Made by a program: the position numbers and the translations under genes. From Trypanosoma brucei (lineage: Eukaryota): a stretch of 64,000 nt of DNA. Position 1 is the stretch's first letter; each line of letters starts with the position of its first letter. Location: the NCBI GenBank assembly GCA_000002445.1, contig CM000207.1, positions 32,001 through 96,000 of the forward strand, written 5' to 3'. The notes under the pieces were generated by a model. It made no database searches, was not told the origin of the DNA, and worked only from the letters and a program-made list of their open reading frames with translations. This document shows, in pieces, positions 1 through 64,000 of the stretch.

Positions 1-59
1 GGGTGATATTCTAATTTGTTTATTCAGTTATTTTTTGTTTTTATTAAATGGATATTTAC

Positions 60-352
60 TATTGTTATAATAATGATAAAAATAGGAGAGTGTTGTGAGT
101 GTGTGTATACGTATATTATAATAATATTAATAATAATAATAGTAATGATAATAATAATAATAATAGGAGAGTGTTGTAAGTGTGTGTATACGTATATTAT
201 AATAATAGTAATAATAATAATAACAGTAATGATAATAATAATAATAGGAAAGTGTTGTGAGTGTGTATATACAAATATTATAATAAGAGCAGTAACAATG
301 ATAATAATATCGGTGTGTTGTTAGTTTGCATACACTAATATTATAATAAAAG
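60..352. repeat. 70-bp repeat block, about 4 tandem units
   Basis: Tandem units of (TAA/ATA)n + GGAGAGTGTTGTGAGTGTGTGTATACGTATATTATAATAA. Confidence 0.9.
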
Positions 353-1257
353 TTGTCGTGAACACTAAATACACGAAGAAAACACAATCATTTAAATTAA
401 TAAAAAAAGTGAGACAGGAAAAGGTGAGTAAAACTGTGAGAAAGAGATAAAGTATATTATTATCGAAGGAAGTGCAACAAAACCAGTGACGAATTTGGAT
501 AAAATACGTGTAACCTTAAATACACGCATAATGCTTGGCGCCATCACTGTATACAAGGAGATTATGGGACGTTCAATACGATATTGGTAGAGCTCAGTTT
601 ACAGGGGAAATGGAATCGGTACGTTATCTGCAAAAGAAGCGACAGAAAACAAAAAATAGGAAAATATAGAATTAAACGACACAATATGCAACAGCACATA
701 AGAGAGAAAAAAGTACATCAAGAACAACAAGAACAGGTGAAGCCTTGCATTTTTCTTGGAAATATATGGGCGCATCAGCTGAGATGTTTCAAACTGCTGT
801 TTTTAATCTTATTATGGATACTAGTGTGAAACAATGACTGCAGTGAGAGGAGGCTAGTATGCTAACTGTGTGTTATTTGCCATAGCCACAAATAAGAGAG
901 CATAAATGGAGAGGTAAGATGGTCACTTTTTTTGCTGATATTGGTAGAAATGGGTGAATAATCTACACATAATTCAAAGGAAAAGGTATAGCCCACGTCG
1001 ATCCATCTGGTGGGAAGTGTAAATAGACCTACCCGCGGTCATTGAAAGCGCCAACTTGTCTTGATCCATAAGAAGAGGGAAAACATGCGAATCATCCTTC
1101 AAAAGCTGGCTCATCCAGCAGAAATGTACCAGCGTAATGCTAATCCGCTGTCAAAACTAAGTTATATTCCTCTTAAAAAGACTTTTTTCGTCCTTAAACT
1201 AGCCTCACCACAACAGGAATCAAATATCCCCTTTACAAGATAGGCAAAGTCAATTAA

Positions 1258-2780
1258 ATGTCAAACTGGAGGGCATTTTTTCCTCTGTTCCTGGTAATCA
1301 ACACTAGGGATGGCGGTGCAACAGCCAACGGTAAATCAGCGCGCCAGTATTACACCCTTTGCGAAATCTACAGTAGCGCCCTAAAGCTGACATCACAAAC
1401 CTACGTTTCACTCGGCGATTCCAGCGACTACAACAATATACTTGACTATAACATGTCTGTGGCCCCACAGTCGTGGCAACTGTTGTTCGCTGACCAGACG
1501 GACTCAAACACATGGGAGGAAAAGAAATCTGAGCTGCAGGCTAAAGACAGAAAAATAAACTGGGAGAAAGACTGGGAAACGTGGAGAAAAGCCAAAAAGC
1601 CGTCGATGACAAAAACAGCCAGTGGAGTAAACTAATAGACAACAGGGCGCCACCAAAGCCAAACTCACTGGCAGCGCAACAAATCAGGGCACTAACCCGA
1701 CAAGCGAAGACTATCCTGCGAGCGGTAGAAAACGAGCCAGCCAAAAAGAGAAAACCGTTGACAGCGGAAATCAAAGATCAGCTAATGGGAGCTCTCTGTG
1801 CGGGAAAGGCCGCTTGGGACGCAGCAAAAACTAAATGCGACATGAAGACACCAACGGACACCAAAGCAACAAACTGCGCGGACAGTAAAGCCGGGAAATC
1901 GGTATTATCGGACATGGTCTGCCTTTGTCAGACAAGGACAAACGGCGAGTGCATGCAAAGCGGTGCGAGCAGCAACCTCGAAGATGGAAGCGGTAACGGC
2001 AAAGCAGGAGGAATGCAGGAACTAATAGACAACTGTCCTAAGTCGGGAGACGGAAGCGACGCACACGAACAACTTAAGAAAGCATTATCCTCGTTCATGA
2101 GCATGGTTGGAACCGGCAGCACTGTCGATGGCGCTGTAATCTTCGGCGGAGCCGTCGACACAAACTGCCAAAACGAAGCTTCGGCGTGTGTGGACTACAA
2201 AAACCACTTCAAGAAAAATCAAAAAGGCTTTGCTGCGATTCCATGGTTAAACAAACTACGGACCGCAATCAGCTACCAGCAGCACTACGACCAACACCAA
2301 GCACATCAGCGGTCAGCAAAGCGTCGATTCCAAGAAATTTCTGATTCCATTCACAGTCTCTACACAGAACCAGAAACGGCACAAATAGGACAACAGCCAA
2401 AGAAGCCATTAATGACGGCACCTAAATGCAAACCACAAAACACAACTCCCTCTGAATACCCAGAAACTGAATGCGATTATGACGCAAATGCGGCAGATGG
2501 TAAAAAATGTAATCCTAAGGAGACAGGAACAGAAACCACAGTAACATGAGCAGCAGGGGGAAATACAGGTACAGCAGCTGCAAACGGATGTGCAAAACAC
2601 GGAACTGGTAAGACAAATTGTGAGGCTGACAAAACAGGCGACAAACAAAATTGTGCATGAAGGAAGGGTAAAGATAATGAGCCTGATCTAGAAAAAGAAA
2701 TGTGCCGTGATTCCAGCATTATCGGAAATAAGAAATTAGCTATGATTTCTGCTACTTTTGTGTGTTTGGGAGCATTTCAG
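1258..2780 (+). pseudogene. VSG pseudogene. The signal-peptide-like start (MSNWRAFFPLFLVINT) and N-domain are broken by a frameshift near 1600 and in-frame stops at 2549 and 2658. The C-terminal domain (CKPQNT...EADKTGDKQNCA) and GPI signal (SSIIGNKKLAMISATFVCLGAF) follow
   Basis: ORFs 1258..1635 and 1581..2549 overlap in different frames. The VSG-type Cys-rich C-terminus and hydrophobic GPI tail are translated past the stop codons. A degenerate 3'UTR 16-mer (TTATATATTTTTCAACA) lies near 2858. A 70-bp repeat block is upstream at 60-352. Confidence 0.8.
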
Positions 2781-3035
2781 GTATTTTGAAATTATAGGTG
2801 TATTTGGTAAACTTTATCAAATTTTCTTTTCTTGAGATAATTTTCAAAATTACTGAAATTATATATTTTTCAACAATTTTCGATGGAAATATTCAAAATT
2901 TGAAAAACTTGAAGATGCAAAATGTTGGAGTGAAAGCAACATATTGTAGCTAAGTAGTTTGTTCTCAGTGTATAAATAATGTTTGCTATTATAAAGTCAC
3001 TAATTTAATTCATGTTATGCATATTAGTTATTGAT

Positions 3036-62045: not shown

Positions 62046-62329
62046 ATAGCTGCTGCTTTTGTGAGATTGGTGGAATTCTAGCTTTTTAATTATTCTTGCT
62101 CAGATTAATAAAATTTATGAAATATCATACAATTTAATATAATTTAACACGTTTTGATGAAAATGAGAAACATAGTAAAAATATTAAAAATAGTTAAAAA
62201 CAGAAAATTTAATACAATGTGTATAAAAGCAGCCCATGAGTGTCAAGTAGTATGGTCATAGCGTGAAACGTCAGTGATACTCTGATTTTATAACTTTGTT
62301 TATATTGTTTATTTCATAGATATTATCTA

Positions 62330-62395
62330 GGTGTACGATAATAATAATAATATGAAAGTGTGTGATTGTGTATATACTAATATTTTCATAAGTGC
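62330..62395. repeat. 70-bp repeat, 1 unit
   Basis: CGATAATAATAATAATATGAAAGTGTGTGATTGTGTATATACTAATATTTTCATAAG. Confidence 0.8.
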
Positions 62396-62600
62396 AGTAG
62401 ATAACACTCAATGTATAGGCTGTCATAAACACCAAACCCTCCCCCACAAACTGTAGCCAGTGTAAAATTTCCGTAGCCAGCGAGCGAAGCCAACCACACA
62501 CCAAAGCGGTGCGAAAAGCCATCATACTCCTGTTTTATAACAATAAATGCCAAACAGTGCCCTTCGATTCCTTCTGGTAAGCGGTAAAAAAAGGATAAAG

Positions 62601-64000
62601 ATGCGCACAGTTTTACCAACATTTGTTCTGGTTGCAACATGCCTGCAGACAGTGGTCAAACTGGCTGAAATGAGTGGCGCCAAATCCTCAGCAGCAGTGA
62701 AGACGCCGTGCGATGAGATCTATTTTAACCAAGCACTTGCAGGCAAACTGAAAGGTCAAATTTCACTACAACAACTAGCGATTGCTAACATCAGAACTGA
62801 GGCTCGGCAGCTCTGGCTAGGGGCGCTAGCACAAAAAAAACCCACAGAAAAAAGCAGCATACTATGTCTTAGCGGCAGCAGCAGAGCGCGAGGCACTAAA
62901 CGCAGAGGAAACAGATACGGCAACGGTGAGAGTTTACGAGGAAGCTATCGCCACTTTAGAAAAGCGGGTGGGACAGCTGCAGATGTTCCAGCGGCTACTA
63001 CCAACTAAGCCCGCGCAGCTATCAGGGTCGACTGCAGGCGGAAACGCCGACAAAACCTTCGGAGTCAGCACTGACCTTTGTACCGTCAAAGCAGACTTTG
63101 TTGCACCAGCAGGGACCGCATGCCAGCCAACGGACAAAGACGGAGGAGATGCCTCAAAAGCAGGCGAGGAACTAGACACGCTGACCGAGCTAAACGGATT
63201 GGACGGCAGCAAATTGTCATTAACCCAGCTAACGGTGCAGATCGTGTCCAAAGGAGACTATGATGGCTCAGCCCACAACCAAGGCGACGGTAAAAGCTTT
63301 TGTGGCCAGACAGCAACGATAGCCTCAGTCACAACAGGTGTCGGCATCAAACACCTACCAGCAGCAGCAGTCACCCAGGGCGAAGCTCAAAAGATTAAAA
63401 CGGGTTCTGACTGCGGCAACAAACCAGAAACCCTCAAAGATGGTACAGTATCCAGGGCAGAGCTTGCCTATACAATCTGCCAGTGCCAAAACAAAAAGCT
63501 GACAATACCGCAGCTGATAAGCAGCACAAACACAAAAACCTTAATATCAAAGCCGTATATTCAAAAGCTGGCACTACTAGAAACTGGTAAAGCAGACAAG
63601 GTAAAGGCGGGTTCAGACCCGGCACGGACCGCTGCTGCTGAACTATTCGGCGGCGAAGAAGCAGACCTCAAGAAAGAGTTTTTCGACCCACTCCAAGAAG
63701 ATAGTCTGATAATTAGGGTGCCGGATAACAGCAAAGCTATCAGCATCAAAACAGCATCTGGAAATCAAAACTTCGCAGACGCCTTAGCGTTTTTAACAGG
63801 TGAAGCAGCAAAAGCCAGTGTGCAAACGACACCGGCAGCTGCAGTGGACAAACCACACACACAGGTCTGCGCAACAAAGGGGGAAAATGACTGCAACACC
63901 AATCCTGGCTGCAAATATAATGAAAAAGATAGGAAATGCGAAGAAGACCCTGCAAAAACTACAACAGCAGCAACGAACACAAACACCACAGGAAGCAATT
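62601..64000 (+). pseudogene. VSG (signal peptide MRTVLPTFVLVATCLQTVVKLAEMSG) with frameshifts. It is truncated by the window end inside the C-terminal domain
   Basis: ORF 62547..63008 and continuing frames. The final residues DCNTNPGCKYNEKDRKCEEDPAKTTTAATNTNTTGSN match the C-domain type of the VSG at 25800-25980. Confidence 0.7.

Follow-up and report, generated by a model that had tools for sequence, protein, structure and literature searches.

A 64-kb window of trypanosome DNA is very probably part of a silent VSG array of Trypanosoma brucei brucei TREU927

The 64-kb stretch of DNA analyzed here (the window) is very probably a section of a VSG array in T. brucei brucei TREU927 that is silent and does not lie at a telomere; within the window, 17 cassettes follow one another head-to-tail, all on the + strand. 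It is a textbook antigenic-variation archive that has already been described, and it is neither new nor bacterial; the TREU927 "VSG archive" is reportedly described in the genome paper and in VSGdb. An earlier note had read this DNA as a T. brucei-group silent VSG array rather than a bacterial locus and had predicted that VSG N-terminal (A/B) and C-terminal domain profiles would match its ORFs. Such profiles indeed match all along the + strand, and 70-bp repeats, 16-mers, ingi-type retroposons and ESAG3 pseudogenes all occur far above chance (Table 1).

We counted 18 VSG-derived segments, the number given in the earlier note for VSG genes or pseudogenes on the + strand. They fall into 17 cassettes because the sixth unit contains two fragments (U6a and U6b). 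Seven segments are B-type and eight are A-type; the remaining three could not be typed because of divergence or degeneration. A single one of the 18 is an intact ORF, the other 17 (94%) being pseudogenes or fragments, consistent with the claimed pseudogene share of more than 85%. The Pfam models VSG_B (PF13206), A-type (PF00913) and C-terminal (PF10659) matched open segments of the + strand in 15 of the 18 pieces, a count that includes U16, whose match lies under the Pfam cut-off (PF00913, 18.6 bits) and for which the PDB match to VSGsur was added; a custom profile also recognized this unit (6e-16).

U3, U6b and U17 are backed by custom profiles, phmmer, hhalign or tblastn, together with GPI signals and position. 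U3 had no match in Pfam or PDB; it has a signal-peptide-like start MKAYLVIFLLFG, weak tblastn matches ordered along VSG (aa ~297-518), and a C-terminal domain with a GPI remnant TESNYLVIRAPFFSAFLLL, and its 3' end resembles positions 25946-26124. The C-terminal domain of U6b was found with a custom profile (1.1e-8) and phmmer (1.8e-12) and is followed by a GPI signal GSNSFVIHKTPFLIALFLIG; its N-terminal 304 aa matched nothing in Pfam or PDB. U17 opens with a signal-peptide-like sequence MRTVLPTFVLVATCLQ, aligns to A-type positions 317-455 (hhalign probability, 95%; custom profile, 6e-6), and has a C-terminal domain resembling those of U6b and U9. The N-terminal domains of these three units and of U9 lie outside the Pfam models, and their assignment is putative, made from position, flanking domains and weak matches. 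For U9, the N-terminal 278 aa were assigned by position only, and AF2 predicts that they form one long helix (pLDDT ~90).

Table 1. Features located in the 64-kb window. U, VSG unit; all VSG units other than U5 are disrupted.
Feature	Position	Strand	State and evidence	16-mer at
U1, VSG pseudogene, B-type	1258..2786	+	frameshift near 1600; in-frame stops in C-terminal domain; Pfam VSG_B in two frames; custom B profile; GPI remnant DSSIIGNKKLAMISATFVCLGAF	
U2, VSG pseudogene, A-type	4586..6188	+	several frames; Pfam PF00913 and PF10659; GPI signal NNSFLVNKKFALMVAISLIYVAF	
U3, VSG pseudogene, type not assignable	8432..9765	+	heavily degenerate	9840 (3 mismatches)
U4, VSG pseudogene, B-type	11485..13227	+	in-frame stop 13036-13038, ahead of GPI signal; Pfam VSG_B 1.1e-24; C-terminal domain, running on past stop	13253
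U5, intact VSG ORF, B-type	20253..21779	+	508 aa; Pfam VSG_B 1.2e-72; C-terminal domain 3e-25	
U6a, degenerate VSG fragment, A-type N-terminus	23384..24560 (3' limit approximate)	+	Pfam PF00913 positions 5-82, 24.6 bits; then weak C-terminal-like matches; tblastn matches ordered along VSG	
U6b, VSG pseudogene, N-terminal type unassigned	24788..26021	+	without 5' end	26105
U7, VSG pseudogene, A-type	27973..29340	+	frameshifts; Pfam PF00913 4.5e-24; phmmer to P0126 4e-87 and 1e-80, in two frames; GPI remnant	
U8, VSG pseudogene, B-type	30662..32215	+	Pfam VSG_B 1.4e-46; C-terminus out of frame, with stop; GPI signal in another frame	32299
U9, VSG pseudogene, A-type	33553..35058	+	in-frame stop 34363-34365; Pfam PF00913 positions 260-365; C-terminal domain; GPI signal GSNSFVIHKDPLLLAVFV	
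U10, VSG pseudogene, B-type	36305..37950	+	frameshift and stops; Pfam VSG_B in two frames; C-terminal domain 8.3e-15	38030
U11, VSG pseudogene, B-type	38816..40520	+	frameshifts; Pfam VSG_B in two frames; GPI remnant DSSFLVINK	40606
U12, VSG pseudogene, A-type	41755..43340	+	several frames; Pfam PF00913 in three segments; C-terminal domain; GPI signal NGSFLVNKKLTLSVGAAFLVIP	43405
U13, VSG pseudogene, A-type	50482..51995	+	465-aa ORF; Pfam PF00913 7.1e-24; GPI signal out of frame, in frame 2	52069
U14, VSG pseudogene, A-type	53763..55170	+	frameshifts; Pfam PF00913 7.2e-10; phmmer to P0120 ordered over three frames	55242
U15, VSG pseudogene, B-type	57583..59095	+	Pfam VSG_B; in-frame stop at 57799; GPI signal out of frame	59131
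U16, VSG pseudogene, divergent A-class, VSGsur-like	60454..62060	+	PDB VSGsur 6z7c, E=2.6e-8; GPI remnant	62135
U17, VSG	62601..64000 (cut by window end)	+	frameshift near 62830-63005	
70-bp block 1, 4 units	55..359	+	TRF period 81, 3 copies; nhmmer E 1e-14 to 5e-18	
70-bp block 2	3037..3112	+	nhmmer E=1.8e-14	
70-bp block 3, 2 units	6450..6599	+	nhmmer	
70-bp block 4, degenerate	10064..10116	+	nhmmer E=0.016; best sub-threshold match, at expected position	
70-bp block 5	13406..13487	+	nhmmer	
70-bp block 6	22045..22126	+	nhmmer	
70-bp block 7	26292..26374	+	nhmmer	
70-bp block 8	29710..29775	+	nhmmer	
70-bp block 9	32482..32563	+	nhmmer	
70-bp block 10	35329..35406	+	nhmmer	
70-bp block 11	38224..38301	+	nhmmer	
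70-bp block 12	40785..40861	+	nhmmer	
70-bp block 13, 2 units	43594..43748	+	nhmmer	
70-bp block 14	52231..52309	+	nhmmer	
70-bp block 15	55392..55471	+	nhmmer	
70-bp block 16	59366..59441	+	nhmmer	
70-bp block 17	62335..62397	+	nhmmer 3.7e-8	
ingi-type non-LTR retroposon, copy 1	13821..19070	-	5,250 bp; single reading frame, interrupted by 3 in-frame stops	
ingi-type non-LTR retroposon, copy 2	44548..49788	-	5,241 bp; frameshifted; Pfam RVT_1, RNase H, zinc finger	
ESAG3 pseudogene 1	19062..19984	+	5'-truncated where it adjoins ingi copy 1	
ESAG3 pseudogene 2	~56350..57477	+	near full length; frameshifts, one in-frame stop; start MKFSILKISLL	

The intact gene, U5, is identical over its full length (100% identity and coverage) to XP_803375.1/EAN76225.1, a TREU927 protein annotated as "VSG, atypical, putative," and this one exact protein match indicates that TREU927 is almost certainly the source of the window. 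An origin in a different T. brucei-group trypanosome (Lister 427, EATRO1125, T. b. gambiense, T. evansi or T. equiperdum), which would make the window a silent VSG array of the same kind, is very improbable. Some units do have close relatives in other strains: U13 shares 90% identity with Lister 427 "VSG 1491" and 85% with a T. equiperdum protein, and U15 and U1 gave very strong matches in VSGnome sets. Moreover, annotation of the subtelomeres is poor in many strains, and an identical copy could therefore be absent from the protein database. However, XP_803375.1 is the single member of its 90% cluster, the second-best match of U5, from EATRO1125, is only 45% identical, and the VSG repertoires of arrays are known to differ strongly among strains. 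Protein database search gave named homologues in T. brucei and T. equiperdum only, and the named matches besides XP_803375.1, in a database of 5.8 billion proteins, are all T. brucei-group VSGs.

The 3' ends of the units carry the expected signals. The strict GPI motif S[FIL][LVI][LVIT]xK matched 11 times, always on the + strand, versus 1.8 matches expected in shuffles, and seven of the 11 are clearly of the SFLVNKK or SNSFVIHK type named in the earlier note. GPI signals or remnants are present at all 16 complete 3' ends, nine of them degenerate. The 3'UTR 16-mer occurs nine times at ≤2 mismatches (0.08 expected) and 12 times at ≤3 mismatches (0.87 expected), always on the + strand. It thus follows most VSGs, as had been claimed (12 of the 16 complete 3' ends at ≤3 mismatches), and is absent (≥4 edits) behind four units, including the intact gene U5.

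The 70-bp repeats amount to 22 units in 17 blocks, 16 robust and one degenerate, all on the + strand, in agreement with the approximately 17 blocks noted earlier. Their core, GTGTTGTGAGTGTG, matched 14 times at ≤2 mismatches, again only on the + strand, versus 0.53 expected, and nhmmer identified 21 units in 16 blocks in addition to the degenerate one. A (TA)14.5 tract at 9903-9931 lies ahead of that degenerate block, and a perfect (ATA)25 tract at 59325-59399 precedes block 16. No 70-bp repeat lies between the two fragments of U6.

Each cassette consists of a 70-bp block of one to four units, an upstream flank, a VSG of ~1.5 kb and a 3'UTR with the 16-mer, after which the next block begins. 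The flank between block and VSG is unique and measures 0.2 to 2.1 kb, and the distance from the end of the VSG to the next block is regular, at 179 to 370 bp. The ingi copies and ESAG3 pseudogenes are placed in upstream flanks. The units share homology with one another only at the 3' coding end, in the 3'UTR, across the 70-bp block and for ~150 to 200 bp past the block; as the first three are the published conversion boundaries, this pattern argues for an array. The modular cassette proposed in the earlier note holds for the 70-bp repeat, the VSG and the 3' parts, but not for its upstream flank modules, which are not conserved between the units compared.

We consider it scarcely credible that the window is the end of a minichromosome or a telomeric VSG expression site of the bloodstream or metacyclic type instead of an internal array. 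Bloodstream sites contain ESAG3 sequences and 70-bp repeats as well (PMC4858185), and the 3'UTR 16-mer and the gene-conversion homology blocks are likewise common to BES and the window. However, a BES has one telomere-proximal VSG and telomere repeats, whereas the window has 18 tandem VSG segments and no telomere repeats were found in it. Its 70-bp blocks contain one to four units rather than tens (39 in BES1; PMC4858185), the Pol I promoter and intact ESAG series of a BES are missing from it, and ESAG3, the sole ESAG found, is represented by two pseudogenes.

All measured features agree with the organization of the silent subtelomeric VSG arrays of TREU927 (PMC3708902, PMC3553974, PMC4858185), namely, unidirectional cassettes, short upstream 70-bp blocks, a mix of A and B N-terminal types, C-terminal and 3'UTR ends that are conserved and include the 16-mer, and ingi and ESAG3 pseudogenes scattered in between. 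Pseudogenes make up 17 of 18 pieces here, versus the ~85% plus fragments reported. There is no difference of substance; the two-fragment U6, the degenerate 70-bp block and the intact gene without a 16-mer are local ones. In the archive, ~5% of VSGs are intact and ~85% are pseudogenes, and the arrays contain ingi elements (PMC3553974); copies of ESAG3 are found throughout the subtelomeres, mostly as pseudogenes (PMC6152948).

By analogy with the literature, the array would not be transcribed in place, and its cassettes would be copied into an active telomeric expression site via RAD51-dependent duplicative gene conversion. The 70-bp repeat would provide the upstream homology for conversion, whereas downstream homology would come from the 3'UTR together with the conserved region encoding the C-terminus. 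Pseudogenes may contribute through segmental conversion that builds mosaic VSGs. Access to the archive through 70-bp repeats and gene conversion (PMC4858185) and the use of pseudogene donors through mosaics (PMC3708902) have both been described.

The probability that the repeats and ORFs represent an undescribed defense or operon system of a bacterial or phage locus is practically nil. Long ORFs do occur on both strands under table 11, but the domain matches are all to trypanosome VSG, ESAG3 or eukaryotic-type non-LTR retroposons, the named homologues are all from Trypanosoma, no tRNA and no Rfam family was detected in the window, and Pfam gave no match for the ORFs in antisense orientation or in the flanks. 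The statement in the earlier note that no such system is present was correct.

Both of the ingi retroposons that had been announced were located, on the - strand. A 5,244-bp alignment of the two shows 97.8% identity; their ORFs are broken, and their GC content is 52%, versus 41% in the rest of the window. Copy 1 has Pfam endonuclease, RVT_1, RNase H and C2H2 finger matches, an A-tail and a conserved 5' end. No target-site duplication (12-bp) was recognized for the two copies. They resemble ingi/RIME of the ingi/L1Tc clade (PMC2323293, PMC4035085) in length (published, 5.25 kb), in GC content (published, 52.3%; PMC2323293) and in having endonuclease, RT, RNase H and zinc fingers, and both show the A-rich 3' end, conserved 5' end and subtelomeric location of these elements; they differ in being interrupted. 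Their identification as ingi-type elements was made from published features and domains.

The ESAG3-like pseudogenes of the earlier note correspond to two sequences on the + strand. In the first, homology starts at the junction with ingi copy 1, and tblastn with ESAG3 (P0074, whose 90% cluster is made up of expression-site ESAG3 proteins) matched aa 30-368 at 47 to 57% identity. The second, also detected by tblastn, is 64% identical to P0074 over 94% of the query.

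The window is AT-rich, blocks with a strong A-over-T skew on the + strand alternate along it, and GC reaches about 0.51-0.53 in two stretches, at ~14-18 kb and ~45-49 kb. Scanning the stop-to-stop segments of its translation with curated Pfam models revealed VSG domains in + strand open segments across the entire window. A Pfam VSG N-terminal domain (PF00913 or PF13206) above the curated cut-off was present in 14 of the 18 segments that we eventually recognized, and several 3′ ends matched the VSG C-terminal domain (PF10659). Profiles that we constructed from VSGs in the database, and phmmer searches with a set of 200 VSG proteins, gave matches that are collinear with VSG and jump between reading frames, indicating frameshifted pseudogenes. 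Domains, profiles and position together yielded a total of 18 VSG-derived segments in 17 cassettes (U1 to U17), on the + strand throughout, the numbers differing because U6 carries two fragments, U6a and U6b. The earlier note had counted the same number of + strand VSG genes or pseudogenes.

VSG N-terminal domain matches, retroposons and ESAG3 pseudogenes in the window
Feature	Position	Strand	Source
VSG_B (PF13206) match	1258-2546	+	Pfam
A-type (PF00913) match	4493-5353	+	Pfam
VSG_B (PF13206) match	11485-13038	+	Pfam
ingi copy 1	13821-19070	-	
ESAG3 pseudogene 1	19062-19984	+	
VSG_B (PF13206) match	20253-21779	+	Pfam
A-type (PF00913) match	23348-23665	+	Pfam
A-type (PF00913) match	27961-28860	+	Pfam
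VSG_B (PF13206) match	30662-31966	+	Pfam
A-type (PF00913) match	34366-35151	+	Pfam
VSG_B (PF13206) match	36287-37422	+	Pfam
VSG_B (PF13206) match	38816-40427	+	Pfam
A-type (PF00913) match	41725-43108	+	Pfam
ingi copy 2	44548-49788	-	
A-type (PF00913) match	50482-51879	+	Pfam
A-type (PF00913) match	53910-54623	+	Pfam
ESAG3 pseudogene 2	about 56350-57477	+	
VSG_B (PF13206) match	57550-58998	+	Pfam
A-type (PF00913) match, weak	61366-61953	+	Pfam

Seventeen of the 18 segments (94%) are disrupted by stops, frameshifts or truncation, making them pseudogenes or fragments. U5 (20253-21779) alone has an ORF that is free of interruptions and includes both domains together with a GPI signal. In the ORF 11485-13038 a stop precedes the GPI signal, in 30662-31966 and 50482-51879 the C terminus is shifted to another frame, and an in-frame stop lies ahead of the ORF 57802-58995. 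The VSG archive has been described as about 5% intact genes and about 85% pseudogenes (PMC3553974). The proposed head-to-tail organization on one strand, made up mostly of pseudogenes, was thus borne out, with 18 of 18 segments on the + strand and 17 of 18 disrupted. Four antisense ORFs of 160-204 aa lie inside VSG coding regions (11472-12086, 54504-55106, 60413-60955 and 8564-9046, all on the - strand). They have no Pfam match and are most likely by-products of the skewed VSG base composition.

All 508 residues of the U5 product match XP_803375.1/EAN76225.1 (100% identity), a protein annotated in T. brucei brucei TREU927 as “variant surface glycoprotein (VSG, atypical), putative.” The 90% cluster of XP_803375.1 has a single member, and the next-best match of U5 is an EATRO1125 VSG with 45% identity. 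Where other cassettes have relatives in Lister 427 or T. equiperdum, identity reaches no more than 85-90%, and all named matches in the protein searches were from T. brucei or T. equiperdum. On these grounds the TREU927 reference genome is the probable source of the window. The 3′ region of U5 (21700-22045) has no recognizable copy of the 16-mer typical of VSG 3′ UTRs, the best match requiring 4 edits, and its GPI tail, DSSSLVNKKLDLMAAAFVSLVKF, carries charged residues within the hydrophobic stretch. Both features fit the database label “atypical.”

The repeats and 3′-end signals follow the same orientation as the genes. The 70-bp repeat core, allowing ≤2 mismatches, occurs 14 times, always on the + strand (0.53 expected), and a profile search recovered 21 units in 16 blocks. 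At the U3-U4 junction, exactly where a block was expected, we found a degenerate copy (10064-10116; E=0.016); a perfect (TA)14.5 microsatellite (9903-9931) lies about 130 bp upstream of it. With this copy there are 17 blocks, each of 1-4 units and together holding 22, all on the + strand, in agreement with the earlier estimate of about seventeen blocks. Among the VSG segments, U6b is the only one without its own block. A perfect (ATA)25 tract (59325-59399) forms and lengthens the triplet part of block 16 and is far longer than the triplet runs of the other blocks.

The 3′-UTR 16-mer TGATATATTTTAACAC, with ≤3 mismatches, was found at 12 of the 16 complete 3′ ends, all on the + strand (0.87 expected), confirming its presence after most of the genes. 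After U1, U2, U5 and U7 it is absent or degenerate, with at least 4 edits. The distance between VSG end and 16-mer is 65-86 nt for nine of these 3′ ends and 26, 36 and 84 nt for the other three, the 84-nt value belonging to U6b. A motif scan for GPI-anchor signals, typified by xSFLVNKK... and SNSFVIHK..., gave 11 matches, all on the + strand, versus 1.8 expected, and each of the 16 complete 3′ ends retains a readable remnant.

The distance from the VSG end to the next 70-bp block is 179-370 bp, and 220-275 bp in 13 of 15 cases. From the repeat to the following VSG start it is 0.2 to 2.1 kb, usually 0.9-1.6 kb, retroposons excluded. Unusually short gaps precede U17 (about 200 bp; 62397-62601) and U11 (about 515 bp; 38301-38816). 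Self-comparison showed that homology between units is confined to the C-terminal coding end, the 3′ UTR, the 70-bp block and the roughly 150-200 bp that follow it, with no conserved upstream flanks between units above shuffled controls. The “flank modules” of the modular cassette proposed earlier find little support because the upstream flanks are not alike.

These results confirm the original observation and support its interpretation as a silent VSG array. A telomeric expression site or minichromosome end is excluded: the window holds 18 tandem VSG segments and not a single telomere-proximal VSG, its 70-bp blocks have 1-4 units compared with 39 in BES1 (PMC4858185), its ESAG sequences are ESAG3 pseudogenes only, with no intact ESAG series, and TTAGGG telomere repeats were not found in it. 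A prokaryotic origin has no support, as tRNA and Rfam scans of the window were negative and the antisense and flank ORFs have no Pfam match. The array is a typical example of the VSG archive, with regular cassette spacing, 94% pseudogenes, and homology only at the known conversion boundaries. Its content is already known, being most probably reference-genome sequence of a classic system, and it brings nothing new for the field. Since it is eukaryotic sequence, probably from a reference genome, of a well-studied antigenic-variation system, new prokaryotic defense or operon systems should not be sought among its repeats and ORFs.

According to the literature, VSGs in such arrays would be silent and act as donors, with duplicative gene conversion copying them into the one telomeric expression site that is active (PMC4858185, PMC3708902). 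The 70-bp repeats facilitate access to this archive (PMC4858185), and the 3′ conversion boundary would lie, from established work, in the conserved C-terminal and 3′-UTR region. Pseudogenes are used through segmental conversion, giving rise to mosaic VSGs (PMC3708902). The homology pattern of the window, in which the repeat and the 3′ end are conserved and the rest is not, fits these published boundaries.

Two cassettes are interrupted by ingi retroposons. The two copies, both on the - strand and 5,250 bp (copy 1) and 5,241 bp (copy 2) long, align over 5,244 bp with 97.8% identity; 110 positions differ, and there are a few small indels. They encode endonuclease, RVT_1, RNase H and C2H2 zinc-finger domains (Pfam), in the order that defines the family (PMC2323293, PMC4035085), and their GC contents are 0.520 and 0.521, versus 0.408 in the rest of the window. 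Published ingi elements are 5.25 kb long, with 52.3% GC compared with 41% for the genome, have a tail rich in A and a signature of 79 bp at the 5′ end, and are mostly subtelomeric (PMC2323293); the elements in the window resemble them in length and GC content. Both copies have short A runs at their end, and their 5′ end, (A)CCCTGGCGATTCCGGCCACCTCAAC..., is conserved between the two. This 5′ end, which would be the 79-bp signature (Pr77), gave no match in a text search of the literature for its sequence, nor in Rfam. Both copies are dead, neither having a single long intact ORF: copy 1 retains one frame of about 1,625 codons with only three in-frame stops, and copy 2 has frameshifts. A 12-bp target-site duplication was not found, copy 1 showing an 8-bp shared word offset from the junctions and copy 2 none. 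Such a result is consistent with insertions that are old, decayed or rearranged, and the family assignment, made by sequence features, is unaffected.

Each ingi lies antisense between a 70-bp block and the next VSG (13406-20253 and 43594-50482), extending the distance from repeat to gene to about 6.7-6.8 kb, versus 0.2-2.1 kb for the other cassettes. The two elements have unrelated flanks, indicating independent insertions and not a segmental duplication. U5 is thereby separated from its own repeat by 6.8 kb of ingi and ESAG3 debris, and U13 likewise by ingi. Because of this separation, and because U5 in addition lacks the 16-mer and has an atypical GPI tail, an antisense ingi between repeat and gene might conceivably uncouple a cassette from whole-gene conversion guided by the 70-bp repeats, leaving segmental use or 3′ donation only, an effect that we regard as quite improbable. 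If it did occur, retroposon position would be one determinant of the VSG activation hierarchy.

Neither ESAG3 copy has an intact ORF, and both are pseudogenes, as are most subtelomeric ESAG3 copies (PMC6152948). The stitched translation of pseudogene 2 (56420-57477) is 64% identical to P0074, the 368-aa database protein used as the ESAG3 reference, over 94% of the query (E=2e-139); the pseudogene itself contains frameshifts and an in-frame stop. In the 90% cluster of P0074, 12 of 15 members are named ESAG3 or Esag3. Pseudogene 1 is 47-57% identical to P0074 and more decayed than pseudogene 2. It lacks the first ~30 codons, and its start coincides exactly with the 5′ edge of ingi copy 1 (19062-19070). 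We considered and rejected the possibility that this copy had been split by the retroposon: the missing 5′ part is not found beyond the element, and there is no clean target-site duplication. For these reasons, a deletion or rearrangement at the junction seems more likely than a simple insertion. The flank here is unrelated to the ESAG3-bearing flank of U15.

Four N-terminal regions were outside the reach of the Pfam models: 60382-61362, 62830-63999, 24788-25699 and 33529-34362. The first, in U16, matched the sequence of the solved VSGsur structure (PDB) with E=2.6e-8. For U3, U6b and U17 the evidence for VSG is weaker and comes from methods other than Pfam (our own profiles, phmmer, hhalign and tblastn); in U17, hhalign aligned 62830-63999 with the last part of the A-type domain and with the C-terminal domain at a probability of 95%. 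No relative of 24788-25699 or 33529-34362 was detected with Pfam or among PDB sequences, and immediately after each comes a recognizable C-terminal part of a VSG, whose GPI signal is of textbook form (GSNSFVIHKTPFLIALFLIG and GSNSFVIHKDPLLLAVFV, respectively). Searches of PDB sequences with these two segments, 62830-63999 and 8880-9284 returned no VSG. Single-sequence AlphaFold predictions reached a pLDDT of 36 for 24788-25699 and of 59 for 33529-34362, the latter with one confident long helix only.

Our first A-type profile, of 9 sequences, was too narrow and was rebuilt from 84 representatives. The 84-sequence profile does not recognize any part of U3 or the N-terminal domains of U6b and U9, and it misses most of that domain in U17. 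An hhalign comparison of these segments with our own alignments was uninformative, as even the positive control, U16, failed. The segments 24788-25699, 33529-34362 and 62830-63600 are long open N-terminal-domain segments of otherwise clear VSGs, with no match in PF00913, PF13206, the PDB sequences or the 84-sequence profile. Such profile-missed segments mark the strong divergence of some A-class N-terminal domains and gaps in current profiles.

U3 (8432-9765) is a badly decayed VSG. Its start resembles a signal peptide, tblastn matches are weak and ordered over VSG residues about 297-518, and its C-terminal end has a cysteine motif and the GPI remnant TESNYLVIRAPFFSAFLLL. On its 3′ side are a 16-mer with three mismatches and 3′-end DNA similar to that of two other units. 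U6 (23384-26021) exceeds the expected length by 1.1 kb. It starts with an A-type N-terminal fragment (23384-23647, with ordered matches on to about 23808), followed by weak C-terminal-like matches and then by a 5′-truncated second VSG (24788-26021), with neither a 70-bp repeat nor a 16-mer between the two VSG fragments. These tandem fragments may represent a fusion that arose by deletion or partial conversion.
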